From NCBI GenBank assembly GCA_030726915.1, contig JANRCR010000041.1:4262-68261 (forward strand): 64,000 nt of DNA, in the 5' to 3' direction. A program made the translations under genes and the position numbers. Below are positions 36,503-63,871 of this stretch, piece after piece. This stretch comes from Candidatus Nanopelagicales bacterium (GTDB taxonomy: Bacteria > Actinomycetota > Actinomycetes > S36-B12). Below the pieces are notes generated by a model, which saw nothing but the letters and a program-made list of their open reading frames with translations, did not search any database and was not told the origin of the DNA. How positions within the stretch are numbered: position 1 is the stretch's first letter; the number at the start of each line of letters is the position of its first letter.

Positions 36503-36651
36503 GACTTCTCCTGGGGACAGGTGGCGACACAAGCGGGAGATATATCGTACCCGATTCGGGAGGATCTCCGGCAAAACATCAGCCTGACAGGACAATCGCC
36601 TGTCATCGGTCTACGCGTGCCCGTGCCCGCCTCACGCGCTACCGTCGCTTC

Positions 36652-46471: not shown

Positions 46472-46600
46472 GTCGCCTCCCTGGTGACCAGGTAGGCAGA
46501 CTAGGGGAGCGGAGGGCTCAACACATGAGTGAGGCCGCGCTGTACGGCCATCTGGGCCCGCCCTCGCCGAGGCAGGGGCGCTCCAGGACTTCCCTTGGAC

Positions 46601-46789
46601 CTAGCCGCAGCCACAACCGCACCCGCCACCTCTGCGGACATACGGGTCGTCCTGGGCTACACCGGCGGGCCTTGTCTGCCGCGAACCACATCGTGCGCAG
46701 GTCCAGGATGTCGGCATACGTGCGCCGGACATCACCAGTGCGGGGAATGTGTGTTCGCATTCCCCGCACTGGATCAGATATACCGGCAA
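46601..46789 (-). CDS. FmdB-family zinc-ribbon protein with C-terminal Gly/Cys tail
   Basis: TTG start lies 4 nt after the upstream stop. (M)PVYLIQCGECEHTF...WTCARCGS...RRGGGCGCGCG has the CxxC...CxxC ribbon typical of FmdB-like proteins. Confidence 0.65.
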   Translation of the reverse strand: MPVYLIQCGECEHTFPALVMSGARMPTSWTCARCGSRQTRPAGVAQDDPYVRRGGGCGCGCG

Positions 46790-46793
46790 ATGA

Positions 46794-47900: not shown

Positions 47901-48110
47901 CTGGTGCCTTCCCTTGATTGGGCGACCGTGGGTCGCACTTATGGGCCCTTTCGATCCCCGTTCCTACTGCGATAAACGTCCGCACCTGCGGGTACTCGCA
48001 CGCTAGCCCCGGGGGAGATCACCGACTACGTATGGTGGGGACGAAGTGCGGCGCGTATCCCTGTCCTGGCCGGGCGAACTTTCAGCGATTCCAGGACCGC
48101 AGCCCTTCCG

Positions 48111-50204: not shown

Positions 50205-51019
50205 CAGTGGAGTGCCACCTCGAAGGTGCGCTGCAACTCGCCGGGGTCGAACTCCGATCGGCGCACACCCAGCGGGTCAATCGCGCGCACGGCAGCGAGT
50301 TCAGCAGGGCTGGGCGGCTCGACAGTTCCCAGGTCCGATGCCACCTCGAATTCGAAGCCGGTTGAGCTGCGTACGTCGTCCTCCGTCACATCAGGCCACA
50401 TCTCACGCAGGCGAGCAATGCCTGAGCCGTCATAATCGAAGATTCCCAATTCCGTGACCAGCCACTGCGGGCCGCCGCCCGAGTATCCGAGAGCCTTGCG
50501 ATCACCGGCCGGGGTGACGTGGCCAATATCGGTGATGAAGTCGCACGAAGACACCAGGGTCCGTCCTGAGCGGTGACGAGTAGTCCACAGGGTGAGTTGA
50601 CCGATCGTCGCTGAGATGTTGCAACCGCCGCCACCTCCGCCCAATTTGACCTTCGGTCGATCCAGCGGCCCGACAGCTGTGACATTGGTGTTGCCGTATC
50701 CATCGATCTGACCACCAGACAGGAACATACGATCCACATCCCCTCGGGACGCTGCATCAAAGAACTCTTCAAATCTCATGCTGTAGGCAGCGCCCTGCTT
50801 GAGACTGTTGTCGTTGCTTGTCGGGGGGATAAAGGGAGGATCCGGGTTGATCGCGTACATCGCACCCTCGATCAAGAGCATGTCGGGAGCGTGCGTTCGC
50901 CGCGCAACGTGCATCGCCACCTGCGCGCAGGGGCTGCCGAACCCATGGAAGACAACCTCCCGGTCACGGATCGTGCGAGCCAAGGCCACGACGAACCACT
51001 CATCAATGGTGTACGTCAT
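50204..51019 (-). CDS. Family I CoA-transferase, subunit B
   Basis: Start is MTYTIDEW (ATG 51019, ATGA overlap with subunit A). Resembles glutaconate/3-oxoacid CoA-transferase beta subunits. Confidence 0.8.
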   Translation of the reverse strand: MTYTIDEWFVVALARTIRDREVVFHGFGSPCAQVAMHVARRTHAPDMLLIEGAMYAINPDPPFIPPTSNDNSLKQGAAYSMRFEEFFDAASRGDVDRMFLSGGQIDGYGNTNVTAVGPLDRPKVKLGGGGGGCNISATIGQLTLWTTRHRSGRTLVSSCDFITDIGHVTPAGDRKALGYSGGGPQWLVTELGIFDYDGSGIARLREMWPDVTEDDVRSSTGFEFEVASDLGTVEPPSPAELAAVRAIDPLGVRRSEFDPGELQRTFEVALH

Positions 51020-51924
51020 GCGAAAAGCCCCTTCCACGCATCGACTGATTCACTCCAGGTAGTGAGGCGCTCAAGTTCTGCAGAGCCCTGCCGATCTCGA
51101 TAGCCCGCCTCGTCGGTGCTGCGCACCCACTCGTCCAGATAGGACTCAAGGGATTCCTGCGTCCCAGCAGCTCGGATGTAGGCACCCGTGGCCGAGCGGT
51201 CATAGGCATAGTGCGGGTAACTCGATGCCGGGTGAGCACCAAATGGCACTTCGGCAACGCCCCTCACCAAGTGGGCCGGGATGGTGATTCCGCGCTCGAC
51301 CAACTCCTCGGTCGCCACGATCTTGTCTACCGTAGCGACAACCGATCGCGCGGCACTCGCGAAGTGTTCATCGAGTACGTACGGCTGCTCCATGTAGAGG
51401 TTGCCCCGGGTGTCCCCGAGCGGCGCGTGCAGTAGCGCGACGTCCGGGCGCAGCGGTGGAACCACGACGAGCACCTCCCCCGTGAAGGGGCAGGTCATCT
51501 CGGCGTACTCGGGGTGGAGGCGCCGCATGTCCGTGCCCTTGATACCCCTAACTGGCAGGAAGGGGACCCCCATCTCCGCAGCACGCAACTGCGTCAGGAT
51601 GGTGACGCAGCAACTCTCCTTTACCTGGATCGTGCCACTCTCCGCGGCCCTTCTGTAGGCAGGCGCGAGCCCGAAGTCCTGCTCAAAGCCCACGTAACTC
51701 TCCTCGCAGACAGTTATTGCACCTGCCGCTACGAGCATGTCGACGTCCAGGCTGTGCGCCGAGCCGACCACGTGCAGGTTCCTGCGACCCTGACGAATCA
51801 TCTCGCGTATCAGAGCCATAGGCAGGCGCGCGGAGAGGCCACCACCTAGGGCGACGACGTCGCCATCAGCGACCATCCCAGCCGCCGTGGAGAGATCGAC
51901 TCGCTTATCGGGATCCAGAAACAT
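51016..51924 (-). CDS. Family I CoA-transferase, subunit A
   Basis: 302 aa. DGDVVALGG... N-terminus typical of CoA-transferase alpha subunits. Confidence 0.8.
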   Translation of the reverse strand: MFLDPDKRVDLSTAAGMVADGDVVALGGGLSARLPMALIREMIRQGRRNLHVVGSAHSLDVDMLVAAGAITVCEESYVGFEQDFGLAPAYRRAAESGTIQVKESCCVTILTQLRAAEMGVPFLPVRGIKGTDMRRLHPEYAEMTCPFTGEVLVVVPPLRPDVALLHAPLGDTRGNLYMEQPYVLDEHFASAARSVVATVDKIVATEELVERGITIPAHLVRGVAEVPFGAHPASSYPHYAYDRSATGAYIRAAGTQESLESYLDEWVRSTDEAGYRDRQGSAELERLTTWSESVDAWKGLFA

Positions 51925-51954
51925 GTTCCTCCTCGCTCAGGGCCGACATCGGCG

Positions 51955-52734
51955 CTAGATCGTCGTCATCCCGCCGTCAATGCTGAGCACCGATCCCGTG
52001 ACGAAGGCAGCCTCATCACTCGAGAGATAGAGCGCCGCCTTTGCTATGTCCACCACATCGCCAAGTCGACCAATCGGGTACTTCGCGATCGTTATCGCAA
52101 GACCCTTCTGCAGGTCGCCCCCACCGCGGGCGGTGAGCATCGGCTCCATGAGAGGCGTGTAGACGGTCCCCGGAGCGATCGCGTTTACCCGGATCCCACG
52201 GGGGGCAAGGTCAACAGACATCGACCGCGTAAGGCTCGCAACCGCACCCTTGGCAGCGCAATACGCCGCGAAGTTCGGGATACCCACGAGCGCCGCCACA
52301 GAGGCCTGATTGATGATGGATCCCTTGCTCGCCTGCATCATCGACGGAACGACTGCTCGCGAGCAGAGGTACGTGCCCTTCACGTTGATGTCAAAGCAGC
52401 GGTCCCAGTCGTCTTCCTCAGCCACGTCGACGGCGCCCGTGCTCCCAATCCCAGCATTGTTGTACAGCACAGAGATGTCGCCGAACTCCGCGATGACCGC
52501 CGTGACTGCAGCGCGAACCTGGGCATCAACAGTCACATCAGTCGTCAGTGCCATAGCTCGCTGACCGGCCGCACGAATGCCGTCACTCACCTCGGCCGCG
52601 GCATCACCGTTGACATCGAGCACCGCTACGGCTGCTCCCTCCCGCGCGAAAAGTTCCGCCGAAGCACGTCCGATTCCCGAACCCGCGCCCGTGATCACGG
52701 CCACCTTGCCCTCTAGCCTTCCCGGCATCATCAT
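51955..52734 (-). CDS. SDR dehydrogenase; candidate second hydroxyalkyl-CoM dehydrogenase
   Basis: 259 aa. TGAGSGIGRA, NNAG and YCAAK catalytic motif. Functional label comes from operon context only. Confidence 0.6.
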   Translation of the reverse strand: MMMPGRLEGKVAVITGAGSGIGRASAELFAREGAAVAVLDVNGDAAAEVSDGIRAAGQRAMALTTDVTVDAQVRAAVTAVIAEFGDISVLYNNAGIGSTGAVDVAEEDDWDRCFDINVKGTYLCSRAVVPSMMQASKGSIINQASVAALVGIPNFAAYCAAKGAVASLTRSMSVDLAPRGIRVNAIAPGTVYTPLMEPMLTARGGGDLQKGLAITIAKYPIGRLGDVVDIAKAALYLSSDEAAFVTGSVLSIDGGMTTI

Positions 52735-52789
52735 TCCTTTCGCTCGTTGTCAGAAACTTCATCTTCTTGAGTTTCGATCGGTCACACAA

Positions 52790-53533
52790 TCACCACGATG
52801 ACCACCCACCGTCGATCACGATCGCCGAGCCGTTGGCGTAGGCCATGCGCCCTGAGGCAAGCAGTGCGACGGTGTCCGCGACGTCCTCCGGTTGAGCCAC
52901 ACGTCCGATCGGGACCATCGCCTCGACCTTGGCGCGCAACTCGGGCTGGTCGAGGCGCCACTGCGTCATTGGGGTCTCGACCATGCCCGGGCAGATCGCA
53001 TTCGATCGGATTCCCAGGGGGCCATAGTCGACCGCCACCGAGCGGGCGAACATCAGAGCAGCGCCCTTTGAGGTCGTGTACGCGCAGCGCCCGGGAAAGG
53101 CAATAAGGCCCGCCACCGAGGCAATAGTGATGATCTGGCCACTGCCCGCGGCAATCATCGAGGGCAGCAGGGACCTCGTGCACAGGAAGGGGCCCCTTAC
53201 GTTGACAGCAATAACGCGGTCGAACTCGTCGATGGGCGTTTCTCCCGCGCTCGTCGCCTGCTGCGATCCCGTAATGCCGGCATTGTTCACAAGGACGTCG
53301 ACATGTCCCAACCTGTTGAGGATGCGGCCCATGACGTCCTGGACATCGTCGGGATCGGTGACGTCCAAGGCAAAGTGGTGCGGCGACAGAGATCGCACAG
53401 ACTCGACGTCCAGATCCGTTGCCACGACCTGCATCCCCTCGGAGATAAGTCGTCGAACGCTTGCGCTGCCGATACCACCGGCCGCGCCGGTTACGACGAC
53501 GACAGGTGACTGATCCTCACTGGTCACTGTCAA
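52790..53533 (-). CDS. xecD: SDR dehydrogenase resembling R-2-hydroxypropyl-CoM dehydrogenase
   Basis: 247 aa. TGAAGGIGSA, NNAGI, YTTSKGA, and the C-terminal stretch CPGMVETPMTQWRLDQPELRAKV. That stretch closely matches the substrate-binding region of Xanthobacter R-HPCDH as I remember it; needs alignment to confirm. Confidence 0.65.
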   Translation of the reverse strand: MTVTSEDQSPVVVVTGAAGGIGSASVRRLISEGMQVVATDLDVESVRSLSPHHFALDVTDPDDVQDVMGRILNRLGHVDVLVNNAGITGSQQATSAGETPIDEFDRVIAVNVRGPFLCTRSLLPSMIAAGSGQIITIASVAGLIAFPGRCAYTTSKGAALMFARSVAVDYGPLGIRSNAICPGMVETPMTQWRLDQPELRAKVEAMVPIGRVAQPEDVADTVALLASGRMAYANGSAIVIDGGWSSW

Positions 53534-54855
53534 CCCCTTCCCCGGGCCAACACAGCAGCCTGCGCCGCCTGGATGAGTGGGTCGTAGACCGGTGAGTACG
53601 GCGGAGCATAAGCAAGGTCTAGCTCCGCGATGTCGTCAACAGTCATACCTACCTGAAGGGCAGCCGCCACCACATTGATGCGTTGAGCTACCCCGTCCCT
53701 ACCTACCAGTTGGGCACCGATCACACGGCCGTCCGGCTTGTGAACCAGGCGCACGATGATCGGCTCGGCTCCCGGGTAGTACTTAGCGCGGGACTTTGCC
53801 GTCACCTGAGTCGCCTCCGCGCGCCATCCGCGCGCGCGCGCCTCCTCAAGCGTGACGCCCGTGTGCGCGACGGTGAGATCGAAGACCTTGACAACCGCGG
53901 TGCCGACGACGCCCGCAAAGGTGGCTTCGCCACCTCCGGCGACGGTGCCTGCGACCCGCCCGGTCTTATTGGCTGCGGGGCCGAGTGGCACGAAGGCGGG
54001 TTCCCCGAGGACTCGATGATGCACCGCGATGCAGTCACCAGCGGCATAGACGTCCTCGGCGGAGGTGCGCATCTGCTCGTCAACGATGAGGGCTCCGTTG
54101 GGGAGCGCTGCCAAGTCGGACACAAGACCCGTCGAGGGACTTACTCCGACCGCGAGCACGACCACGTCCGTCGGGATAGTGCCACCGTCGTACTCCACGT
54201 CAATGTGGGAGTCATGGGAATGCAACGCCCTGAGTTCGGCATCCAAAAGCAGCGTGCAGTGACGCTCGGTTTCGGTTTGGATGATAGCGGCCACATCGGG
54301 GTCGACAGTCGTCATCACGCGGGATAGCCGATCCATGACCGTGACGTCGAGACCACATGCATGCAGGGCCTCAGCCATTTCCAGTCCGACGTACCCGGCC
54401 CCCACGATGACCCCTCGGCGTGCGGTTCCGAGTCGTGCACGGAGCTCAATGGCATCCTCGAGTCGCCGAACAGTCATGACACGGGGATCGTCAACGCCGG
54501 GGATCGATGGCACGATTGGCTGTGCACCAGCCGCGTACACCAGGGCGTCGTAACCCCACTCGGCTCCATCGCTATCGACCACGAGGTGCGCTTCCAGGTC
54601 GACCGAAGTGATCACGCTGTCGAGCCGCAGGTCAATGCGTCTGCGCTCGCGAAACTCCGCCGCGGGATAGGCGATAAGGCTCTCGGGGTCAGAGATCACG
54701 CCACCGAGGTAGTAGGGGAGCCCACATACCCCGTAGGACGGAAAGGGGCCTTGCTCCCACACGGTCACCTCGGCGGTGCTATCCGCGCGGCGCGCCGCTG
54801 AAGCCGCCGACATCCCGGCGGCCCCGCCTCCGATCACCACGATTCGCCGGGGCAC
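53530..54855 (-). CDS. Single-cysteine FAD/NAD(P)H disulfide oxidoreductase (CoA-disulfide reductase / NADH oxidase family)
   Basis: 441 aa, GTG start after GGAGGTG. VVIGGGAAGMSAA FAD fold, single redox Cys context SYGVCGLPYY, second Rossmann VIVGAGYVGLEMAE. 4-nt overlap with the downstream SDR. Confidence 0.8.
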   Translation of the reverse strand: MPRRIVVIGGGAAGMSAASAARRADSTAEVTVWEQGPFPSYGVCGLPYYLGGVISDPESLIAYPAAEFRERRRIDLRLDSVITSVDLEAHLVVDSDGAEWGYDALVYAAGAQPIVPSIPGVDDPRVMTVRRLEDAIELRARLGTARRGVIVGAGYVGLEMAEALHACGLDVTVMDRLSRVMTTVDPDVAAIIQTETERHCTLLLDAELRALHSHDSHIDVEYDGGTIPTDVVVLAVGVSPSTGLVSDLAALPNGALIVDEQMRTSAEDVYAAGDCIAVHHRVLGEPAFVPLGPAANKTGRVAGTVAGGGEATFAGVVGTAVVKVFDLTVAHTGVTLEEARARGWRAEATQVTAKSRAKYYPGAEPIIVRLVHKPDGRVIGAQLVGRDGVAQRINVVAAALQVGMTVDDIAELDLAYAPPYSPVYDPLIQAAQAAVLARGRG

Positions 54856-55087
54856 GCCACCTCCAAAGCCTTGAACGACCGCCCATCAGGGCGATCGTCT
54901 TGACCCTCCCAGGGGGAAGGTGGGAACTCTATGACCGCTTGGGGCTAAGTTCCACGGTTTCTTCGGCCCTTCAGGACGGCACAATCGGTTGTCAGCTCGC
55001 CTAATATTCTCGACACACCGCATGTTGTCGCCTCATAAAGGGGACAACCGTGTACCCAAAGCCAAAGAAGGGGCGAACGACGTGCAG

Positions 55088-55879
55088 ATGTGGGAGCAGC
55101 CTCAGTTCCTTGACCTGCCGTCTCGTGACGCCAAGCCCCGTCGGCGCGGACTCACGCATGTCCTCGACAAGGGTCTCGATCTTGCGCGAACGGAGGCTTT
55201 TGTCGGCCAGTGCGCGCATCTCGTTGACATCGTGAAGATTGGCTGGGGCATCGGCTACGTCGACTCGACATTGCCGGCGCGCATTCGCGTCTATCGCGAG
55301 GCCGACGTCAGCGTCAGCCTCGGCGGAACGCTAGTGGAAGTCTGTGCGATGCAAGATCGCGTCCTGGAACTGCGTGACTGGGCACTGTCCCTGGGGGTCA
55401 CTGTGATGGAGGTATCCAACGGACTTCACCTCCTCGACCCGCAATCCAAGTCTGCGCTCATCCGCCTACTGAGCGAGGACTTCACCGTCGCGGCCGAGGT
55501 CGGAGACAAGGATCCGTCCCTTCCTGTAGTCGCTGACAAGTGGATTGAGGAAATGGAGCGTGATCTCGAGGCGGGCGCCACCTGGCTGGTCGCCGAAGGA
55601 CGCGAGTCAGGCACCGTCGGTATCTACTCAGCAGACGGTGGCGTGCGCGCCGATCTCGTGGAGAGCCTTGCGGACCGCATCACACTGGAACGAATCATTT
55701 TTGAGGCACCACTCAAGGCCCAGCAGACGTGGTTCATCGAACGTGGAGGCCCACAGGTCAACCTCGGCAACATCGCCCCTGAGGACGTGCTGCCGCTGGA
55801 GACTCTCCGCCTGGGGCTGCGGGCGGATACGGCAGTCTCCGTCGCCGCAATGATCACTCCCGAACGCGCCCTTCAGTGA
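55088..55879 (+). CDS. comA: (2R)-phospho-3-sulfolactate synthase (ComA / XcbA)
   Basis: KPRRRGLTHVLDKGL, DIVKIGWG, GGTLVE, EGRESG, IFEAPLKAQQTWFI and VNLGNI...LETLRLGLRADT are collinear with archaeal ComA. Start is ATG 55088 (alternative GTG 55082). Confidence 0.9.
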   Translation: MWEQPQFLDLPSRDAKPRRRGLTHVLDKGLDLARTEAFVGQCAHLVDIVKIGWGIGYVDSTLPARIRVYREADVSVSLGGTLVEVCAMQDRVLELRDWALSLGVTVMEVSNGLHLLDPQSKSALIRLLSEDFTVAAEVGDKDPSLPVVADKWIEEMERDLEAGATWLVAEGRESGTVGIYSADGGVRADLVESLADRITLERIIFEAPLKAQQTWFIERGGPQVNLGNIAPEDVLPLETLRLGLRADTAVSVAAMITPERALQ

Positions 55880-55891
55880 GAGGATGTGCGC

Positions 55892-56836
55892 ATGTCCCAC
55901 CGAGACGCGATCCAGCTACCTGAGCCCAACACGCTCACGCGTCCCTATCGCGGACTCTCGGTGCAGGAAGTGGATTTCGATCTGAGCAGTGAGCAGCGCA
56001 TTCTGGATTACATTCTCGGCCGGGAGGTCTACCGCCGGACCGAGTGGTTACTCCTGTCCAACCTCGATGCCCGAGCTCTCATCGAAGTGCGCAAGGAATC
56101 CTTTGACCCACTCTTCTCACCCGTAGTCACCGCGCGAGTACTTGCACTACCTGACAAGGTCGTATGGATCGAAGATCCTGACACCGACGTGGGCAATCCG
56201 ACACAACTCGCCATGACTGCCCTACGGCATGAGCGGGAAGGCGCAGATGCCTATGCCGTCCAAGGCAAGTTCGAGCACATCAATGTCATCTGGAGACCCC
56301 AGCCCGTGCGGGTTGTCGTTACTGAGGTCATCCCGCCAACGCCTGCCAAACTGCTCGAACTCGCCAAGACCGCGGTGGGATTCGACGAGGATCTCCCCCC
56401 TCTCGACCTCGTGCTTGACGCCGTCGATATACGCACGATGGCCGCAGACAACCCCTCGGATACATACCTGCTGCCCTGCCGCGGATCGGGAGTGGACCTG
56501 CCCGGCGAAGTCACATTCCTCGACACGCGCCCGGAGGAACGCCGGGACTGGACCCTGATTGGATGCGAGCGGTCAGTGCAGTTCCATCGTCACTTCTACG
56601 GCGACGAGCCAACCCAGGTCGACTTCTGCCCCAACCACCGGTCGGCCACTCTGGCGGAGGACACCCTTGTGCTCACCAAGTGCTGCCTACTCGAACGTGG
56701 TGTCGAGGTCCGTGGCAATACCGCCATCGTGCCGTGGGGGTCCAATCTTGACGAGGTGCGCCTCGCACTGCGGCTCATCACTGGCGTGGGGCCGTTACCC
56801 GAGCCGAAGCAGATCGGGTCTGCCCTGACCCCATGA
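55892..56836 (+). CDS. xcbB: XcbB-position protein, Cys-rich C-terminus, function unassigned here
   Basis: 314 aa, ATG 55892 after GAGAGGA. C-terminal cysteines LPCRGSG, LIGCERS, DFCPNH and TKCCLLE. It occupies the second slot of the comA-led operon. Confidence 0.5.
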   Translation: MSHRDAIQLPEPNTLTRPYRGLSVQEVDFDLSSEQRILDYILGREVYRRTEWLLLSNLDARALIEVRKESFDPLFSPVVTARVLALPDKVVWIEDPDTDVGNPTQLAMTALRHEREGADAYAVQGKFEHINVIWRPQPVRVVVTEVIPPTPAKLLELAKTAVGFDEDLPPLDLVLDAVDIRTMAADNPSDTYLLPCRGSGVDLPGEVTFLDTRPEERRDWTLIGCERSVQFHRHFYGDEPTQVDFCPNHRSATLAEDTLVLTKCCLLERGVEVRGNTAIVPWGSNLDEVRLALRLITGVGPLPEPKQIGSALTP

Positions 56837-58191
56837 GCGCCCACCTGAGCGACTCCGCGATCTACGGGCATCTGTGGGGTACTGACGAGACTCGCGCGAT
56901 GCTGTGCGACGAGGGGCGCCTGCGCTCGTGGCTCGACCTGCTCGCCTGCCTCGCTGAGGCACAGGCCGAGGTGGGCCTGGTACCCGCGGATGCAGCCCGG
57001 TCAATAACGGCCTCGGTGCACGACTGGATCCCCGACATCGCGGAGGTCGGACGTCTCACCCGAGAGACCGGACACTCAACACTTGGCTTGATCCGCTGCA
57101 TGCAGGAACGTTTGCCTGAGCACGCCCGAGAGTGGGTCTACTACGGAGCCACGGTGCAAGATCTGAGCGACACCTGGGCCGTCCTCGTCATGAGGCGCAT
57201 GACCAATATCGTCCTGCGGGACCTCCGCGTAGCCCGGAGCGCAGCGGCCGACCTCGCGCGGGTGCATCGAGCGACGATCATGTGCGGGCGCACGCACGGT
57301 CAGCCGGGTCTACCCATCACTTTCGGATTCAAGGCTGCGGTATGGGCGGATGAGATCGACCGCCATATCGGACGGATCGAGCACTCCCGAGAGGCCAGGG
57401 AGGTCATCCAACTCGGCGGTGGGCTTGGTTCCATGGAGTTCTGGGGTGAGGCTGCCGAGCCGATGGCAAGGGCCTTCGCCCGACGTCTAGACCTCGGCGT
57501 GCCCGTCATACCGTGGCTCACGTCCCGCGATCGCTTCGCCGAGTTCGTCACCCAGATGGCGATGATCGCCGCGACAATCGCCAAGATCGGCGACGAGGTC
57601 TTCGAACTCCAAAGAGCCGAGATCGGGGAGCTCCGCGAGCCGCTCTCCCCCGGCACAGTTGGAAGTATCACTATGCCGCACAAGCGCAATCCTGAGTGGT
57701 CCGAGCACGTGAGTTCGCTCGCGCGGCTCGTTCGAGTCAATGCCGATCTCGCCATCGAGGGGATGATCCACGGGCACGAGCGAGACGGCCGGGCTTGGAA
57801 GACAGAGTGGGTCGTTCTGCAGGAGACATGTCACTTCACCGCGACGAGCACAATGGCGGTGACGCGCATTCTTGACGGACTGGAGGTCAACGTTGCGCGC
57901 ATGCAGGCGAATCTCGACGCCCAACGTGGTTACGTACTCAGTGAGCCAGTCATGCGAGCGCTATCTGATCGAATGGGCAAGCACACAGCTCACCAGGTCG
58001 TCTACGAGGCCACGCTCTCGGGGGGTGAGCGCGGAGTAGACATGCGCACGGCCCTACGCGACGACCCGCGCCTTGCGGATATCCCCGATGCCGAACTCGA
58101 TGCCCTTCTCGATCCATCGCGAGCCCTGGGCTCCATATCCCGTTTCGTAGATGACGTCCTAGCTCGACTAGGAGACTCCACGGATGCCTAA
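56833..58191 (+). CDS. xcbC: Aspartase/fumarase-superfamily lyase (adenylosuccinate-lyase-like), XcbC-like
   Basis: 452 aa, ATGA overlap with the upstream gene. Superfamily signature loop GSITMPHKRNP. Confidence 0.7.
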   Translation: MSAHLSDSAIYGHLWGTDETRAMLCDEGRLRSWLDLLACLAEAQAEVGLVPADAARSITASVHDWIPDIAEVGRLTRETGHSTLGLIRCMQERLPEHAREWVYYGATVQDLSDTWAVLVMRRMTNIVLRDLRVARSAAADLARVHRATIMCGRTHGQPGLPITFGFKAAVWADEIDRHIGRIEHSREAREVIQLGGGLGSMEFWGEAAEPMARAFARRLDLGVPVIPWLTSRDRFAEFVTQMAMIAATIAKIGDEVFELQRAEIGELREPLSPGTVGSITMPHKRNPEWSEHVSSLARLVRVNADLAIEGMIHGHERDGRAWKTEWVVLQETCHFTATSTMAVTRILDGLEVNVARMQANLDAQRGYVLSEPVMRALSDRMGKHTAHQVVYEATLSGGERGVDMRTALRDDPRLADIPDAELDALLDPSRALGSISRFVDDVLARLGDSTDA

Positions 58192-59173
58192 GCCCCCGTG
58201 GGTCACACGCCTGGGGACAGTTCCACGGGAGCCCCTCGCCTCGCTCCCGAGCCCGCTACAACCAGCCCCGCGACTCTCTGACGCCCTTGGCATCGAAATA
58301 TGGGTCAAGCGCGATGACCTACTCGGTCTAGGTCTTGGCGGTAACAAGGCACGTCCGCTCGAGTTCCTCATGGGCGATGCGCTTGTCAAGAACAGCGACG
58401 TTATTGTCACGGGGTCGGGCCCGCAGTCAAACTGGTCCATGCTCGCTGCCCTGGCGGCACGCCGGTGCGGACTTGACTCAATCGTCTGCTTCTACGGTGA
58501 CCGTCCACGGGAGTCCCGCGGCAATCTCCTCCTCCACGGACTTATCGGCACTGACGTTCGCTGGACCAGTGAGTCGACGCGAGAGTCCGTCGACACGATG
58601 ATCGGCTCGGTGGCCGAGAGCCTCCGACAAGACGGCAAGCACCCCTACGTCATACCCCGTGGGGGGGCGACGCCCCGAGGCAGCCTGGGTTACCTCGTGG
58701 GAGCTGAGGAGATCTCGAGCCAGTGCAGGGACGCCGGTCTCCACAACGCGACCGTCTGGCTTGCTACCGGCTCTTGCGGCACCCAGGCCGGGCTCGTCAC
58801 AGGCGTGGCCGCCGGCCTTCTGTCCGCCGTCGTGGGCGTGACGGTCAGCAGACCCGTCGAGGAGTGCCGATCTCGCGTGCTTGAGATCGCGCAAGCTGCT
58901 GCAGTACTCGCGGGCACGACGCCAGCGACAGCAAACATCGTCACGGTGCTCGATGGCTACATCGGCGGGGGGTACGGCGTACCTACCGCCGAAGGTGCAG
59001 CCGCCGCCGCCCTGGTTCTGAGCACCGAGGGGATCTTCCTCGACCCACCATTCTGCGCGAAGGGAATGGCCAGCCTCGTCGATGCTGCCGCTCAGGGAAG
59101 CATCGCGGGCCCTGTGATCTTCCTCGTGTCCGGCGGTGCGCCCACTCTCTTCGTGGAGGATGGGGCGTTGTGA
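58184..59173 (+). CDS. xcbD: PLP fold-type II enzyme of the ACC-deaminase/D-cysteine-desulfhydrase family, XcbD-like
   Basis: 329 aa. PLP-lysine motif GGNKARPLEF. It lacks the AcdS-diagnostic YEGKS and AHLGG contexts, having FCAKG and LVSGG instead. Confidence 0.7.
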   Translation: MPKPPWVTRLGTVPREPLASLPSPLQPAPRLSDALGIEIWVKRDDLLGLGLGGNKARPLEFLMGDALVKNSDVIVTGSGPQSNWSMLAALAARRCGLDSIVCFYGDRPRESRGNLLLHGLIGTDVRWTSESTRESVDTMIGSVAESLRQDGKHPYVIPRGGATPRGSLGYLVGAEEISSQCRDAGLHNATVWLATGSCGTQAGLVTGVAAGLLSAVVGVTVSRPVEECRSRVLEIAQAAAVLAGTTPATANIVTVLDGYIGGGYGVPTAEGAAAAALVLSTEGIFLDPPFCAKGMASLVDAAAQGSIAGPVIFLVSGGAPTLFVEDGAL

Positions 59174-60684
59174 CCATTCAGCCTCCCACCGGGTACCTCG
59201 GCACCGACGGCCGGATCAGCTCAGGTCCAGCACCCGAGCTCGTCGCAGCCGGGTACGCACTGGAAATCTCTGACGCGCCGGCACTCCATGACGGGCTTCT
59301 CATTGCTGATCTCGCTCATGTCATCGGACTTCTCGACAGCGGCCTCATCGACACCGACATCGCGGGCCGACTTCTGCGCGCGCTGCTAGACATGGGGGAT
59401 ATCCCCGCGGAAGACTTCCCCTACGACGTGACCCTCGGGGATGCCTACAACAGCCGGGAGCGCGAACTCGAGCGCCGGATAGGCACTATGTCCGGCGTCA
59501 TCCACCTCGGACGCACCCGACGCGAAGCGGGGCGAATCGCGTTCCGGCTTGCATTGCGGGAGCGACTGGAAGCGTTGGCGCTTGCTGTCGCGCGGCTGAC
59601 ACGGACGCTGGGTGACCGCGCTGAGGATTGGTCCGACACGGTCTGGGCGGATGTCACCTACTTGCAGCTCGCTCAGCCATCCACCTTCGGTCACTACCTG
59701 GCCGCCTTTGCGGAGGAATCCGCCCGTCACCTGCCCCGGTTGCGTGCCGCCCACGGCTGGGCTGACGTGTCCCCTGCTGGATCCGGCGGCGTCGCGGGCA
59801 CGCGCATGGGCATGGATAGACAAGGCCTTGCGCAGATCCTCGGATTCACAACTGTCGGCCGCAACACCCGCGACACCATGTGGACCATCGATGGACTCCT
59901 CGACGCGATGGCGGCAGCAACTCAGACAGCCATTACGTGCAGCCGCCTGGCAGAGGATCTGCAGATCTTCGCGAGTGCTGGCTTCGGGATCGTCACCGTC
60001 GATGCGTCCCTATGCCGAGCATCAGTCCTCATGCCGCAGAAGCGCAACCCTTACGCTCTTTCCGTCATTCGAGCTGGGGCAAGCACGCTTATTGGTCGAC
60101 TCACCGGGACAGCCTCGACGGCACGCACACCATCCGCAGCCACCGACAACTGGCTGCATTCCTACGGCGAGGTACTTTCGTCTCTGGAATTGTCCACCCG
60201 GCTCGTCGACCTGACCGATGCCGTGGTGCGCACGCTGTCGATCGACTCCGAGCGGATGCTCGTGAGCGCTGCAGACCAGCAAGCCATCGCCACAGATCTC
60301 GCGGACGAACTCGTCCTCACCACCGGCATGGACTACCGCAGTGCTTACCGTGTCGTCGGGCGCGCTGTCGCGGCCGCGCTGGAATCCGGCTCCATCATCA
60401 GCCCGGAGTCACTGGACGCAGCATGCCGAGAGGTCACAGGAGACGCACTCCCCAACTCATCGGAAGCGATCAACTGGGCCTCTCTACGTGACCCCCGGCA
60501 ACTCGTGGCTACGCGTACGGAAACCGGCGGGTGCGGTCGCGACAGCCTTGCTGCCGAACTGGCCTCGCTGCGCGACATCGTCGACGAGCAGCAGGGGTGG
60601 TTTGAGGCACGGCGCGCCCACGAGCAAGAGTGCCTCGGTGCGCTGCGCACACGCGCAAACAATCTAGCTACCCCCTCGATCTAG
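59170..60684 (+). CDS. xcbE: Aspartase/fumarase-superfamily lyase (argininosuccinate-lyase-like), XcbE-like
   Basis: 504 aa, GTGA overlap with the upstream gene. Signature loop ASVLMPQKRNP. Confidence 0.7.
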   Translation: MTIQPPTGYLGTDGRISSGPAPELVAAGYALEISDAPALHDGLLIADLAHVIGLLDSGLIDTDIAGRLLRALLDMGDIPAEDFPYDVTLGDAYNSRERELERRIGTMSGVIHLGRTRREAGRIAFRLALRERLEALALAVARLTRTLGDRAEDWSDTVWADVTYLQLAQPSTFGHYLAAFAEESARHLPRLRAAHGWADVSPAGSGGVAGTRMGMDRQGLAQILGFTTVGRNTRDTMWTIDGLLDAMAAATQTAITCSRLAEDLQIFASAGFGIVTVDASLCRASVLMPQKRNPYALSVIRAGASTLIGRLTGTASTARTPSAATDNWLHSYGEVLSSLELSTRLVDLTDAVVRTLSIDSERMLVSAADQQAIATDLADELVLTTGMDYRSAYRVVGRAVAAALESGSIISPESLDAACREVTGDALPNSSEAINWASLRDPRQLVATRTETGGCGRDSLAAELASLRDIVDEQQGWFEARRAHEQECLGALRTRANNLATPSI

Positions 60685-62261
60685 AGGGACTCCAATTGCA
60701 TCGCTCCCGCGCGCAGGCGTGAGAGTTGAATGAAGTGCGAGGGATTGAGAAAGAGTTCGTTCATTTCAGCAAGTTGGTCAATCGTCACGCCCACCTTGTG
60801 GATGAGGAAATCGAGGTACTGGAAGCCGTCCTTCGCCCCATATCCCACATGGTGGGCCCCCACCAGGCGGCGACTCTTGGAGTCAAAAACGGCCTTCTGG
60901 AAGCCCGACAGTTCCGGATGGGTGAAGGCGAAGAGCATCGTGCCGTCGGAGCACGGCAGCGGGATGTCACCGTAAGGAACGCCCGGCGGGGGCATCTGGA
61001 TCACAATGACATCGCCGTACTCTTCGCGTGCCTCACGTTCGGATAATCCGACCCAGGTCACCTCGTACGTCGAGTGGAGGAAGTCGGGGTACTCGCTGAA
61101 GTCAAAGGAGTAGTCCTCACCCATGATGTTGCGGGCTGCGGTCATCCCGCACTTGCGTGCCTTAAACATCTCCATCGGGGCACCAATGAGATCTCCCACA
61201 GCGTAGACGCCCGGGACTGATGTGCGCATGTGGTCGTCGACGATCACGGCCCCTCGGTCATCCACCGAGACTCCCAGCGCTTTCACGAAGGGGTCGGAGT
61301 TAGGGCGTTCGCCCGTGCCCACGAAAACCATGTCGCAGGGGATATCCCGGACGGATCCATCAGCCATGCGCACGCGTACGCCTGTCGCTCGCTCATCACC
61401 AAGGATCTCCAGGGTCTCCGTGCCGTCGAAGATTTGTATGCCACGTCGACGCATTCCGTCCACAACGTACTCACGTAGATCATCATCGATGTGGTGGAGG
61501 CCCGAGCCCTGCATCAGTGGGCTTCTCGCGAGGATCGTTGTCTGGCAGCCCGCAGCCTGGAAGAAGGATCCGTACTCGATCGCCACCTTCGACCCACCGA
61601 TAATGACGCAGGAGCGCGGGTTGTAATCAAGGTCCTCGACCAGCGTTGCATAGTCGAAGACACCAGCCTTATCGATCCCCGGCACGTCAGGGAACACCGT
61701 GGCCGATCCGGTTGCCAGGACGAGGTTCTTGGCCGTAAAGATCTCCCCCTCGACTTCGACGGTATGCGCATCGATGACACTCGCGGTGGCATTGAGGATG
61801 TACTCCATTCCGAGCTGCTCCTTGCTTTGCCAATTCATGAAGGAGTGCGCGGAATTCCGGCCCGAGACGAAGAGTTGCACCATGTCAAGGACGGATGCCT
61901 TGGACTCGTCGAACTCCGGGTACCAGAAGCGTCCCGATAACGTGCGAGCGAGATCGAGTTCGCGTGCCGCCTCCGAGAAGAGGTGGTGAGGGACGCAGGC
62001 CTGGTGGGGACAAGACCCCCCGAGGAAGGGCCATTGGTCGATGGTCAACTGTCGACCGCCGCGGGCACGCATGAAGGCAGACCCGAAGCGACCTCCAGCC
62101 CCTCCGCCGACGAAGATGGCGTCGAACTCGCGGTCATCGCTTCGGTCGAGGTTGTAGATCGCACCCTGGCGCCTACCATCCTCGAACTCATCGATGAGCG
62201 TCCGCCACTCGGCGTTTGTAGGGTGCTCGTCGCGAACGTCCATATAGGTCTCCGAGTCCAT
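60681..62261 (-). CDS. xecC: NADPH:2-ketopropyl-CoM oxidoreductase/carboxylase (2-KPCC)-like disulfide oxidoreductase
   Basis: Start is ATG 62261 after AGGAGG (526 aa). FAD fold FVGGGAGGRFGS and redox disulfide GGSCPHQACVPHH. The usual C-terminal His-Glu dyad region (HPxxxE) is replaced by FLNPSHF, i.e. Phe...His at i/i+5, the substitution described for 2-KPCC. Confidence 0.78.
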   Translation of the reverse strand: MDSETYMDVRDEHPTNAEWRTLIDEFEDGRRQGAIYNLDRSDDREFDAIFVGGGAGGRFGSAFMRARGGRQLTIDQWPFLGGSCPHQACVPHHLFSEAARELDLARTLSGRFWYPEFDESKASVLDMVQLFVSGRNSAHSFMNWQSKEQLGMEYILNATASVIDAHTVEVEGEIFTAKNLVLATGSATVFPDVPGIDKAGVFDYATLVEDLDYNPRSCVIIGGSKVAIEYGSFFQAAGCQTTILARSPLMQGSGLHHIDDDLREYVVDGMRRRGIQIFDGTETLEILGDERATGVRVRMADGSVRDIPCDMVFVGTGERPNSDPFVKALGVSVDDRGAVIVDDHMRTSVPGVYAVGDLIGAPMEMFKARKCGMTAARNIMGEDYSFDFSEYPDFLHSTYEVTWVGLSEREAREEYGDVIVIQMPPPGVPYGDIPLPCSDGTMLFAFTHPELSGFQKAVFDSKSRRLVGAHHVGYGAKDGFQYLDFLIHKVGVTIDQLAEMNELFLNPSHFIQLSRLRAGAMQLESL

Positions 62262-62283
62262 GCCCACTCCTCCTGTACTGACA

Positions 62284-62311
62284 CTCTCCCGCGACGGATG
62301 ACGCGGGAGAG
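62284..62311. promoter_or_regulatory. Perfect 10-bp inverted repeat in the divergent 2-KPCC / aldehyde dehydrogenase intergenic region
   Basis: ctctcccgcg-acggatga-cgcgggagag lies 23 nt upstream of the 2-KPCC start codon. It could be an operator or a 5'-UTR hairpin. Confidence 0.4.
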
Positions 62312-62443
62312 GGGCCGCAACTGAGGCATGACTGTGCCGCATTGCCTGCGACCGGGGCCATGACCCAGCGGGACAGTGTTCTCCGATTCCTTTGTCCATC
62401 CGGGCCGATCCGAACTTCCCTGAATTCGTGCAGGCTTGGTCCC

Positions 62444-63871
62444 ATGACTAAGCCCGCCGCAGACTCCCGTAATCAATCCGAGGTCGCAGCCGACGTCGCC
62501 GAGATCGTCGCGCGTGCGCGACGGGCCCAGGAAGCGATCACCGACTGGGACCAGCAGCGCGTCGACGAGCTCGTGACAGCTGTCGGATGGTCGATCGTGC
62601 GCAAAGACCATGCCGAAACGCTGGCACAACTTGCGGTTGATGAGGGTGGGTTCGGCACTTATGCGGACAAGCTCACGAAGATCCAGCGGCGCGTCAACGG
62701 CCTGCTCGCTGACATGCACGGCATGCAGACGGTGGGCGTCATCGAGGAAGACCCTGCGCGAGGACTGGTCAAGATCGCCAAGCCTGTAGGTGTCCTCGCC
62801 GCTCTCATCCCGACCACCGGCCCCGATGCCACCCCTCCCATGAAGGCCCTCATGGCCCTCAAAGGACGCAACGCAATCGTGGTCGCCCCCCACCCGCGCA
62901 CATGCAAAACGTCAGAGCTCGCGGTGGAGTACATGCGTGAAGCCTGCGCCCAGGTGGGTGCGCCGCAGGACCTGATCATCAGCCTGACCAGTCCCAGCAT
63001 CGACAAGACTCGTGAACTCATGCGGCAGGCTGACGTCGTCGTGGCCACGGGTGGGGCTGCCATGGTCAGAGCCGCATACAGCAGTGGGACTCCAGCGTAC
63101 GGCGTTGGCGTAGGCAACGCCGTACACGTCGTCGACGAGACCGCGGACCTTGACGATGCTGCCGCGATGATCGCCGCAGCGAAGACCTTTGACCTGGCGA
63201 CGAGCTGTCTCGCTGACAACTCCGTGATCATCGCCGATGCAATCTACGCCGACCTTATGGAGAGGTTGGCGACCGCGGGCGGCTACCTTTGCAATGAAGA
63301 GGAGAAAGCCCGCCTCCAGGCCGCGATGTGGCCAGACGGGGGAGAGATTCCCGCACTTGACGTCATCGCGAAGTCCGCTGCGCACATCGCGTCACTCGCT
63401 GGCATACAGATCAGCCCGGGTACGACATTTCTGATGGTGGAGGAGGATGGCACCGGCCCCGACCATCCGTTCTCCGGCGAGAAGCTCTCCGTCGTCCTGG
63501 CCGTCTATCGTTATGGAGGAGACATCGCCGACGCGGTCGGCACCATTAACGACATCACTGCATACCAGGGCCTCGGCCACACCTGCGGTATCCACACACG
63601 TCTCAACGAGCATGTTGATGCCCTTGCCTTCGGCACGCGCACCGCCCGCGTCATGGTCAACCAAAGTCTCAATGAGGGTGCGGGTAGTGCGAGGAACGGC
63701 CTACCCTTCACGCTGAGCTTGTCCTGCGGGACCTGGGGCGGCAATATCACTACGGAGAACGTCAACGCCCGCCACTTCATCAATGTCACGTGGGTATCTC
63801 GGCCCATCGCACCCCGACCGGTCTCCGAGGAGGACCTCTTCTCTGGCCATTGGGCAAAGTACGGCGCTTAG
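62444..63871 (+). CDS. CoA-acylating aldehyde dehydrogenase (EutE/PduP/AdhE-N type)
   Basis: Start is MTKPAAD (ATG 62444). Catalytic Cys context AKTFDLATSCLADNSVII resembles the acylating-ALDH motif FDNG.ICASEQS. Confidence 0.78.
   Translation: MTKPAADSRNQSEVAADVAEIVARARRAQEAITDWDQQRVDELVTAVGWSIVRKDHAETLAQLAVDEGGFGTYADKLTKIQRRVNGLLADMHGMQTVGVIEEDPARGLVKIAKPVGVLAALIPTTGPDATPPMKALMALKGRNAIVVAPHPRTCKTSELAVEYMREACAQVGAPQDLIISLTSPSIDKTRELMRQADVVVATGGAAMVRAAYSSGTPAYGVGVGNAVHVVDETADLDDAAAMIAAAKTFDLATSCLADNSVIIADAIYADLMERLATAGGYLCNEEEKARLQAAMWPDGGEIPALDVIAKSAAHIASLAGIQISPGTTFLMVEEDGTGPDHPFSGEKLSVVLAVYRYGGDIADAVGTINDITAYQGLGHTCGIHTRLNEHVDALAFGTRTARVMVNQSLNEGAGSARNGLPFTLSLSCGTWGGNITTENVNARHFINVTWVSRPIAPRPVSEEDLFSGHWAKYGA

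Follow-up and report, generated by a model that had tools for sequence, protein, structure and literature searches.

[quoted passage not shown] R56 of the Xanthobacter enzyme was reportedly described by Nocek in 2002 as a ligand of the CoM sulfonate, and the enolate-stabilising His (H137) is said to have been described by Kofoed in 2011. We take the His137/His84 pair and Met140 to sit near the substrate carbonyl, and the N-terminal extension and internal insertion presumably enclose the active site. The enzyme of Xanthobacter autotrophicus Py2 is XecC (Xaut_5048/Xaut_4867; PDB 1MO9, 2C3C, 3Q6J, 7MGO, 7MGN; EC 1.8.1.5). Roles for its F501, H506, R365, C82 and C87 have been established by mutagenesis and crystal structures, with C82 as the interchange thiol and C87 as the flavin-proximal one (PMC8358701). 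The Phe-His pair suppresses protonation and favours carboxylation, and the F501H variant gives 90% acetone; carboxylation has been demonstrated for the Xanthobacter enzyme alone (PMC8358701). For the homologues in Etn pathways, a role in converting 2-ketoethyl-CoM to malonate semialdehyde is a hypothesis (PMC8727900, PMC6440738).

The homologue described here is encoded in a 64-kb stretch of DNA (the window) from an aquatic actinobacterium. The host bears the label Candidatus Nanopelagicales, which derives from near-identical PntB proteins. Its gene is on the minus strand at 60681-62261 and specifies 526 amino acids plus a stop, beginning MDSETYMD. A plus-strand reading of the same interval was discarded since that translation is full of stops, so the original prediction must have used the reverse strand, with the strand left unstated. 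A ribosome binding site, GGAGGAG (62267-62273 in plus-strand coordinates), lies 5 bases 5' of the ATG, and the identical protein occurs on four public contigs where the gene calls use the same start. A longer ORF of 572 amino acids from 62399 was rejected: it would enter the divergent aldehyde dehydrogenase gene, the ribosome binding site stands before the 62261 ATG, and both the homologues and the public gene calls have lengths of 519-533 amino acids. The features of the gene and its upstream region are as follows.

62262-62443, no strand: 182 bp of divergent intergenic sequence, with the ribosome binding site, separating the homologue from the aldehyde dehydrogenase gene
60681-62261, minus strand: NADPH:2-oxoalkyl-CoM oxidoreductase/carboxylase homologue (ORF, 1MO9 match, public gene calls, fold)
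62139-62261, minus strand: N-terminal extension, residues 1-41, common to 2-KPCC and absent from canonical disulfide oxidoreductases (DSORs) (alignment)
62088-62090, minus strand: Arg58 (=R56), conserved without exception in the family and lacking in canonical DSORs
61983-62021, minus strand: GGSCPHQACVPHH, with redox-active Cys84 (=Xaut C82) and Cys89 (=C87), plus His86 (=H84) (alignments)
61836-61847, minus strand: His139...Met142 (=H137, M140) (alignments)
61155-61157, minus strand: Arg369 (=R365), flanking the anion-binding pocket together with H506 (alignment; PMC8358701)
60945-60986, minus strand: 14-residue insertion, 426-439 (=Xaut 422-435), common to 2-KPCC but not canonical DSORs (alignment)
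60732-60752, minus strand: FLNPSHF, with Phe504 (=F501) and His509 (=H506), the pair in place of the His-Glu dyad (alignments; PMC8358701)

Both motifs claimed for this protein are present: the redox pair occupies residues 81-93, with Cys84 and Cys89, and the C-terminal FLNPSHF occupies residues 504-510, with Phe504 and His509 five residues apart. The prediction that this Phe and His stand at the dyad positions is borne out by alignment with Xanthobacter 2-KPCC and 18 canonical DSORs (MAFFT), where Phe504 falls in the canonical His column and His509 in the canonical Glu column of H-P-T-x-S-E. A phmmer alignment to MerA 5X1Y likewise places Phe504 on the MerA Tyr and His509 on the MerA Glu. Conservation of these segments is strict. 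Cys84 and Cys89, within GSCPHQAC, are invariant (123 of 123 aligned sequences), as is the motif E-L-F-L-N-[PS]-x-H-F in all 93 of the related loci examined. At eleven positions (R58, F59, C84, H86, C89, H139, M142, R369, F504, H509 and Q512) the protein has the same residue as the Xanthobacter enzyme, and its 120 closest homologues conserve them; three of these, His86, His139 and Met142, never vary within the 2-KPCC family and are missing from canonical DSORs. Residues 10-41 and 426-439 pair with Xanthobacter 7-39 and 422-435, and the 18 canonical DSORs have nothing equivalent. The NADPH-type Arg246 is also present, as in 2-KPCC.

The alignment of the protein with Xanthobacter 2-KPCC (PDB 1MO9) runs the full length at 54% identity (phmmer, E=2e-181), and the next-best solved structure is MerA (E=2.6e-36). 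With the motif invariant in 93 loci, that E value puts the match, as judged from sequence, far beyond chance. A library of 1.8 billion proteins gave 725 bits for the family representative versus ~160 bits for generic DSORs, and at least 321 species-level genomes encode relatives with the same dyad. In Foldseek the predicted fold best matches 7MGO, 1MO9 and 7MGN (TM 0.86-0.87 vs 0.70 for the next best, lipoamide dehydrogenase); this comparison is of the global fold only, because the AF2 monomer is of low confidence (pLDDT <50) exactly at the active-site segments 79-85, 430-452 and 501-526, the last including the C-terminal dyad helix. The 2-KPCC-type call is correct. It concerns a known enzyme type and brings no new kind of system and no new chemistry.

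The monocistronic gene converges on the xcb operon and points away from the acylating aldehyde dehydrogenase gene. Its stop overlaps that of the XcbC-like gene in the palindrome CTAG (60681-60684). The neighbouring genes are listed below.

62444-63871, plus strand: CoA-acylating aldehyde dehydrogenase, SauS-like (profile score 553 bits, cutoff 600)
59170-60684, plus strand: XcbC-like CoM biosynthesis gene of the argininosuccinate-lyase family (domain/profile match)
58184-59173, plus strand: XcbE-like PLP enzyme, CoM biosynthesis (domain/profile match)
56833-58191, plus strand: XcbD, 3-sulfopropionylcysteine synthase (651 bits, above the 600 cutoff)
55886-56836, plus strand: XcbA-family protein, DUF7714 (406 bits, above the 150 cutoff)
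54989-55879, plus strand: ComA/XcbB phosphosulfolactate synthase (domain match)
53530-54855, minus strand: second flavoprotein, a single-Cys enzyme of the CoA-disulfide-reductase/NADH-oxidase family, 441 amino acids (domain/profile match)
52790-53533, minus strand: SDR of the XecD / R-hydroxypropyl-CoM dehydrogenase type (49% to XecD)
51955-52734, minus strand: SDR of the XecE / S-hydroxypropyl-CoM dehydrogenase type (46% to XecE)
50204-51924, minus strand: two-subunit CoA transferase, 51016-51924 and 50204-51037 (domain match, PF01144)
48111-50204, minus strand: ADP-forming acyl-CoA synthetase (domain match)
46794-47900, minus strand: epoxyalkane:CoM transferase (EaCoMT; 76% to Xanthobacter XecA, 45-48% to JS614/NBB4 EtnE)
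46735-46772, minus strand: perfect 15-bp inverted repeat directly 3' of EaCoMT (sequence), likely the terminator ending the catabolic operon

EaCoMT, the hydroxyalkyl-CoM dehydrogenases and the CoM biosynthesis genes are all linked to the 2-KPCC homologue within 15 kb. The cluster is a complete set for CoM-dependent epoxide use except for an alkene monooxygenase. This context fits a CoM thioether pathway and agrees with the earlier proposal of a CoM epoxide cluster rather than generic thiol redox. On contigs with the identical protein, MEDS and PucR regulators (EtnR1/R2-like) lie directly beyond the window edge; their NBB4 homologues respond to ethylene oxide (PMC11197473). The divergent intergenic region contains a perfect 10-bp inverted repeat (62284-62293 / 62302-62311), and no operator word common to the cluster's three promoter-bearing intergenic regions was detected among 9-mers on both strands. 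Exact-match metatranscriptome fragments inside the gene amount to a few short contigs, possibly DNA carry-over, and are too thin for a claim on regulation.

Searches for an alkene monooxygenase (tblastn with EtnC/EtnA/XamoA) gave none in the 64-kb window or the ~10-kb extensions provided by four contigs (L001-L004). Monooxygenase Pfam domains are absent from the 40 window ORFs, and neither the 46 kb to one side nor the roughly 10 kb to the other encodes an obvious epoxide-forming enzyme. This local absence is compatible with a monooxygenase elsewhere in the genome. The window could not be matched to a known plasmid, as a search of plasmids for near-identical DNA gave only a 74% match, to the JS614 aldehyde dehydrogenase.

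The homologue is, by analogy with 2-KPCC, quite probably a homodimeric FAD enzyme of that family (EC 1.8.1.5 type) taking the last CoM-dependent step of an epoxide pathway. It is probably NADPH-dependent, and its residues suggest that it carboxylates. EaCoMT would act first, then the R- and S-type dehydrogenases, then the 2-KPCC homologue. NADPH would reduce the Cys84-Cys89 disulfide through FAD, and Cys84 would then attack the thioether sulfur of 2-oxoalkyl-CoM, with the sulfonate held at Arg58/Arg369. The attack would release an enolate and leave a Cys84-CoM mixed disulfide for Cys89 to resolve. Phe504, at the site of the acid His in other family members, would keep protons from the enolate, and His509 with Arg369 would stabilise the new carboxylate in an anion pocket formed by the two residues. 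Attack of the enolate on CO2 would yield a β-oxo acid and free CoM. Such a pathway would be self-contained, with its own XcbA-E-type CoM biosynthesis, downstream CoA-activating enzymes and EtnR1/R2-like epoxide-sensing regulators. As there is no alkene monooxygenase nearby, the epoxides that it consumes probably arise elsewhere or through co-oxidation.

The substrate may be 2-oxoethyl-CoM or 2-ketopropyl-CoM. The cluster is organised like Etn clusters, where the role of the homologue is hypothetical, so the native reaction here may differ from conversion of 2-ketopropyl-CoM to acetoacetate. The CoA transferase, acyl-CoA synthetase and acylating aldehyde dehydrogenase favour formation of malonate semialdehyde from 2-oxoethyl-CoM. 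In view of the Py2-type EaCoMT, the two dehydrogenase types and Ser508, formation of acetoacetate from 2-ketopropyl-CoM is an equally open candidate. Ser508 is small and neutral like Xanthobacter Thr505, versus Glu/Asp in ethene-type homologues: the residue before the dyad His is Asp in JS614 and Glu in every other EtnE-type locus. Ser/Thr/Ala/Gly versus Glu/Asp at this position may mark a functional split, which may be one of C3 and C2 substrates or of carboxylating and protonating enzymes. The correlation of residue 505 with EaCoMT type is only partial, since Chloroflexota loci pair Py2-type EaCoMT with Glu.

Reductive cleavage of the CoM thioether without carboxylation in vivo is an unlikely alternative that can take two forms. 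The SauS-like aldehyde dehydrogenase would turn 2-oxoethyl-CoM into (CoM-S-yl)acetyl-CoA, from which the 2-KPCC homologue would free acetyl-CoA and CoM, or the enolate would simply be protonated to acetaldehyde or acetone, as detoxification. The divergent pairing with the acylating aldehyde dehydrogenase, seen again at 27 of the 85 related loci in the non-redundant set, speaks for such a scheme, as does the fact that this dehydrogenase is most similar to sulfoacetaldehyde dehydrogenase, with a sulfonated aldehyde like 2-oxoethyl-CoM as substrate. Acetyl-CoA is also the endpoint of published pathway schemes (PMC11507031, PMC6440738), and steps beyond 2-ketoethyl-CoM have never been experimentally established. 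However, the protonation-suppressing Phe-His pair is invariant (93/93 loci), which would be hard to explain were protonation the goal, and the anion-pocket residues Arg369 and His509 are invariant too.

That the protein is an ordinary disulfide reductase (dihydrolipoamide dehydrogenase, mycothione/glutathione-type, mercuric or CoM-disulfide reductase) is highly improbable and already contradicted at the sequence level, for although its Pfam domains are generic (PF07992/PF00070/PF02852 for FAD, NAD(P)H and dimerisation; Pyr_redox_2 / Pyr_redox_dim) and sources give many homologues such names, the chemistry-defining His-Glu dyad is replaced, identity to generic disulfide reductases is ~21-26% versus 54% to 2-KPCC, NCBIfam scores fall far under cutoffs (best MerA, 188 bits vs 454; lipoamide dehydrogenase, 173 vs 409), and thiol-disulfide maintenance would fall more plausibly to the separate CoADR-type flavoprotein of the cluster. 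MerA, LipDH, GR and mycothione reductase identities were accordingly rejected on the NCBIfam cutoffs and the replaced dyad. Because no curated NCBIfam model reaches its cutoff, the names given to the homologue and to relatives in the hundreds are 'dihydrolipoamide dehydrogenase' or 'NAD(P)/FAD-dependent oxidoreductase'.

The full catalytic signature is now seen in an uncultured, widely distributed aquatic actinobacterium, and aquatic Actinomycetota join methanotrophs as carriers of monooxygenase-less epoxide/CoM clusters. A tentative and rather speculative extension is that planktonic, cosmopolitan Nanopelagicales-type actinobacteria use an epoxide-induced, monooxygenase-independent CoM pathway to scavenge foreign short-chain epoxides, ending in 2-KPCC-type carboxylation. 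If so, the epoxides could come from co-oxidation in neighbouring methane or ammonia oxidisers, and with at least 321 species-level genomes a carboxylase reaction termed 'unique' in the literature would be widespread and unannotated. The window protein is a reasonable candidate for learning what Etn-type homologues make.

Canonical class I DSORs share with the homologue the FAD/NAD(P)H two-Rossmann fold, the dimerisation domain and the CxxxxC pair. They differ in having a His-Glu dyad (Tyr-Glu in MerA), and they lack the N-terminal extension, the 14-residue insertion and equivalents of Arg58, His139 and Arg369. Py2 2-KPCC is much closer, with full-length collinearity, catalytic C82/C87, H84, H137, M140, R56, R365, F501, H506 and Q509, the extension, the insertion and the NADPH-type Arg in common. 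Differences from Xanthobacter to the present protein include Asn85 to Gln (in the CxxxxC loop), Thr505 to Ser, Ala433 to Cys and Arg436 to Gly. Linkage to EaCoMT, R-/S-type SDRs and xcb CoM biosynthesis genes is found in Py2 as here. The Py2 order is xecA-xecC-xecD-xecE, near an alkene monooxygenase, whereas none is near here, and the Py2 stretches examined have no annotated CoA transferase, synthetase or CoADR-like genes, all of which the window has.

The closest named relatives (65-67% identity) are 'CoM reductase/carboxylase' homologues of ethene- and vinyl-chloride-oxidising Actinobacteria: Nocardioides sp. JS614 (NOCA_RS00610, 67%), Mycolicibacterium chubuense NBB4 and M. rhodesiae JS60. 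The accessory set of JS614 pNOCA01 matches the window in the CoADR-like protein, SDRs, CoA transferase A/B and ADP-forming acyl-CoA synthetase, and also in ComA, XcbA-type, ADSL/PLP/ASL, acylating aldehyde dehydrogenase and MEDS plus PucR/CdaR regulator genes. JS614 and JS60 carry etnABCD-type monooxygenase genes, adjoined in JS614 by an EtnE-type EaCoMT. The window, by contrast, has a Py2-type EaCoMT with no monooxygenase nearby, and so lacks the etnEABCD arrangement of Etn-type clusters, in which an EtnE-type EaCoMT adjoins a soluble di-iron alkene monooxygenase.

The epoxyethane/CoM cluster of the methanotroph Methylohalobius crimeensis is likewise without an alkene monooxygenase and has a Py2-type EtnE (77% to Py2) (PMC11507031). 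Toppings et al. 2024 read that cluster as one for epoxide detoxification (PMC11507031). There the epoxide is made by the pMMO of the host, a methanotroph of the Gammaproteobacteria, while the host here is an aquatic actinobacterium. The two clusters share SDR, CoA transferase, acyl-CoA synthetase and CoM biosynthesis genes, a sulfoacetaldehyde-dehydrogenase-like aldehyde dehydrogenase, a MEDS regulator and, on the opposite strand, a 2-KPCC-like 'E3 component' (PMC11507031).

The minus-strand gene at 60681-62261 encodes 526 amino acids and a stop, beginning MDSETYMD. A ribosome-binding site, GGAGGAG, is found at 62267-62273, 5' of the ATG, and the same start occurs in four public contigs with an identical protein. 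A plus-strand reading of the interval was rejected, its translation being full of stops. The original prediction had named a redox pair and a C-terminal FLNPSHF, and both are present in this ORF. The first is GGSCPHQACVPHH, residues 81-93 (61983-62021), which includes Cys84 and Cys89; the second occupies residues 504-510 (60732-60752) and places His509 five residues after Phe504.

[quoted passage not shown] Identity is 53.9% over 516 aligned residues. Outside the 2-KPCC entries, the best-scoring solved structure belongs to a mercuric reductase (E=2.6e-36). An AlphaFold2 model built with 32 homologues as input (mean pLDDT 75.4, pTM 0.76) is closest to 7MGO, 1MO9 and 7MGN (TM 0.86-0.87), with lipoamide dehydrogenase the top structure of another kind (TM 0.70). 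The active-site loops and the C-terminal dyad helix, elements that serve the partner subunit in the dimer, are modelled with low confidence in this monomer. Because every curated NCBIfam model scores below its cutoff (the top one, MerA, scores 188 bits against a 454-bit cutoff), homologues are named 'dihydrolipoamide dehydrogenase' or 'NAD(P)/FAD-dependent oxidoreductase' in their source databases.

The protein was aligned with Xanthobacter 2-KPCC, the homologue from Nocardioides sp. JS614 and 18 canonical disulfide oxidoreductases (DSORs). The canonical enzymes read H-P-T-x-S-E; Phe504 stands in the column of their His and His509 in that of their Glu. An independent phmmer alignment with MerA 5X1Y puts the Phe opposite a Tyr and the His opposite a Glu. 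Both alignments therefore locate the pair at the canonical dyad positions, as had been predicted. An N-terminal extension (residues 10-41) and an NADPH-type arginine, R246 (TILARS), after the second Rossmann strand are common to this protein and 2-KPCC, as is a 14-residue insertion (426-439) that the 18 canonical enzymes lack.

The function of the Phe-His pair was established for the Xanthobacter enzyme by mutagenesis and crystallography. There, the F501H variant yields 90% acetone in place of 100% acetoacetate, H506E favours acetone and abolishes product inhibition by acetoacetate, and the anion-binding pocket is flanked by H506 and R365 (PMC8358701). Xanthobacter R56, F57, C82, H84, C87, H137, M140, R365, F501, H506 and Q509 are all identical here, as R58, F59, C84, H86, C89, H139, M142, R369, F504, H509 and Q512, and among the 120 nearest homologues in the databases all 11 are invariant or nearly so. 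The mechanistic roles of R56, H84, H137 and M140 reportedly go back to Nocek 2002 and Kofoed 2011.

A relative is encoded in at least 321 species-representative genomes, from which the best 80 loci were fetched. Most belong to Actinomycetota (Nanopelagicales-labelled genomes, Sporichthyaceae, Kribbella, Amycolatopsis, Streptosporangiaceae, Mycobacteriaceae), with Chloroflexota and Dormibacterota MAGs as well. Every one of the 93 loci examined carries the motif E-L-F-L-N-[PS]-x-H-F-[IV]-Q. In a library of 1.84 billion protein representatives at 50% identity, a single full-length representative spans the family (725 bits; generic DSORs score about 160), and three intermediate lineages separate it from generic DSORs. 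The F..H pair and the IQLSR tail are retained in the sister lineages P0122 (47% identity) and P0125 (44%), whose Cys/His motifs are altered; these two may represent variant forms of the carboxylase chemistry. In P0137 (35%) the pair is gone. In one of the first two the equivalents of His84 and His137 are changed (GKCCKNAC, Phe at position 137), and in the other the Cys motif has become GECHLCRC.

The genes of the cluster, including those for coenzyme M (CoM) biosynthesis (xcb), are as follows.

Genes and repeats of the cluster
46735-46772, perfect 15-bp inverted repeat, next after the transferase gene
46794-47900, minus, epoxyalkane:CoM transferase (EaCoMT), 210-bp gap from the acyl-CoA synthetase gene
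48111-50204, minus, ADP-forming acyl-CoA synthetase
50204-51924, minus, CoA transferase A and B
51955-52734, minus, XecE/S-hydroxypropyl-CoM dehydrogenase-type SDR
52790-53533, minus, XecD/R-hydroxypropyl-CoM dehydrogenase-type SDR
53530-54855, minus, single-Cys flavoprotein of the CoA-disulfide reductase (CoADR)/NADH-oxidase family
54989-55879, plus, ComA/XcbB
55886-56836, plus, XcbA-family protein (406 bits, cutoff 150)
56833-58191, plus, XcbD (651 bits, cutoff 600)
58184-59173, plus, XcbE-like PLP enzyme
59170-60684, plus, XcbC-like lyase
62444-63871, plus, SauS-like CoA-acylating aldehyde dehydrogenase (ALDH)

The minus-strand catabolic genes read from 54855 down to 46794, divergent from the xcb genes, whose five enzyme types are those of the bacterial CoM pathway (PMC9457059). 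The carboxylase-like gene and the xcb operon converge on the CTAG palindrome at 60681-60684, which supplies the TAG stop of both that gene and the XcbC-like one; this overlap leaves no space for a terminator between them. On its other side the carboxylase-like gene diverges from the ALDH gene across 182 bp. This promoter region holds a perfect 10-bp inverted repeat, CTCTCCCGCG N8 CGCGGGAGAG (62284-62311), 10 bases upstream of the ribosome-binding site, a candidate operator or 5'-UTR hairpin. The region has no 9-mer in common with the cluster's other intergenic regions. In contigs with the identical protein, the ALDH is followed, just past the window edge, by a MEDS protein and a GGDEF_2/HTH_30 (PucR/CdaR-type) regulator. 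Their homologues in Mycolicibacterium chubuense NBB4, EtnR2 and EtnR1, activate transcription with ethylene oxide, not ethylene (PMC11197473). Elsewhere in the window, the gene for an unrelated 723-residue DUF6421 protein (34424-36595, minus; domain at residues 295-720 only) appears to share an operon with those for an SDR (33747-34427) and a beta-eliminating lyase (32713-33750).

Beyond the observed homology, residues, fold and context, we infer the chemistry from the characterized enzyme. NADPH would reduce the Cys84-Cys89 disulfide through FAD, and Cys84 would attack the thioether sulfur of a 2-oxoalkyl-CoM, freeing an enolate. With protons kept out by Phe504, the enolate would attack CO2, His509 and Arg369 stabilizing the forming carboxylate, and Cys89 would resolve the Cys84-CoM mixed disulfide. 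An unlikely alternative is a non-carboxylating thioether reductase, acting perhaps on (CoM-S-yl)acetyl-CoA after the SauS-like ALDH; the divergent, adjacent pairing with that ALDH in 27 of 85 related loci speaks for it, and the strict conservation of a residue pair with a demonstrated protonation-preventing effect against it. A generic disulfide reductase is excluded for practical purposes by the NCBIfam scores under cutoff and by Phe-His in place of His-Glu. The original preference for epoxide carboxylation over generic thiol redox is supported.

The substrate of such a 2-KPCC-type enzyme can be considered from several sides. For ethene-type clusters, whose accessory genes are those of the window, the literature hypothesis runs from 2-ketoethyl-CoM through malonate semialdehyde to acetyl-CoA (PMC8727900, PMC6440738). 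The Py2-type EaCoMT and the R- and S-type dehydrogenases are compatible with epoxypropane, although JS614 likewise has R- and S-type SDRs. Just before the dyad His (the two being residues 508-509, 60735-60740), this protein carries Ser and the Xanthobacter enzyme Thr; members of the aquatic clade have Ser, Ala or Gly. Glu or Asp stands there in every locus with EtnE, the EaCoMT of ethene oxidisers, and in the other loci examined, mostly from soil-type Actinomycetota MAGs. An acidic residue could alter the anion pocket. As a substrate marker the split is only suggestive, because Chloroflexota loci pair a Py2-type EaCoMT with Glu.

The flavoprotein at 53530-54855 is the second pyridine-nucleotide-disulfide oxidoreductase of the cluster (6RUZ, E=6.5e-99). 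It scores 405 bits with TIGR03385, under the 579 cutoff. JS614 has a homologue, as do 29 of 85 related loci within the flank. Candidate roles include CoM or CoM-CoA disulfide reductase and the 'reductive decarboxylase' guessed in PMC8727900. The window and related loci L002 and L003 have the gene whole (441 aa); in L001 (MAG GCA_052742055.1, 13008-14331) it is broken into two ORFs, 356 and 91 aa long, owing either to a frameshift or to a misassembly of the record. The ALDH is of the CoA-acylating SauS/EutE type (NF047625, 553 bits; cutoff 600), which hints at a sulfonated aldehyde such as 2-oxoethyl-CoM as its substrate.

Metagenomes from nine studies, of seawater, aquatic and marine origin, contain the exact DNA of the carboxylase-like gene. 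The window PntB is about 100% identical to that of MAGs labelled 'Candidatus Nanopelagicales bacterium', and a MAG so labelled holds an 80%-identical homologue of the carboxylase-like protein. A few mismatch-free metatranscriptome contigs lie inside the gene (61043-61204, 61400-61550 and 61636-61786). In two lake-water metatranscriptomes, contigs are 95-99% alike over the EaCoMT, SDRs, xcb genes and ALDH (46500-59400 given for the window), with EaCoMT the deepest-covered gene (about 17x word depth), which suggests expression of the cluster in situ by a related population. As evidence of transcription in situ, these matches are weak.

The protein belongs to an established enzyme family, and its gene to an established type of cluster. 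Modest interest attaches to it on two points: a widespread family is systematically under-annotated, and an abundant aquatic actinobacterium has no local monooxygenase. With JS614 EtnC/EtnA and Py2 XamoA as tblastn queries, no alkene monooxygenase was found in the 64-kb window or about 10 kb past it. Pfam scans of 40 window ORFs gave no monooxygenase either, the upstream genes being unrelated housekeeping ones only. Only five related loci have a monooxygenase alpha subunit inside 10 kb, and flanks of that length are too short to count absences.

The gene set corresponds to that of the etn region on JS614 pNOCA01 and of clusters in vinyl-chloride-degrading mycobacteria (PMC8727900), and the homologues of JS614, NBB4 and M. 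rhodesiae JS60 are 65-67% identical to the protein. Unlike those clusters, that of the window lacks a local alkene monooxygenase and has a Xanthobacter-type EaCoMT, 76% identical to XecA and 45-48% to actinobacterial EtnE. The cluster is a mosaic, the carboxylase-like protein being nearer to JS614 (67%) than to Xanthobacter (54%), which suggests assembly from two lineages. The methanotroph Methylohalobius crimeensis has the same combination, a Py2-type EtnE with Etn-type accessory genes and no monooxygenase, and its cluster has been interpreted as serving epoxyethane detoxification (PMC11507031).
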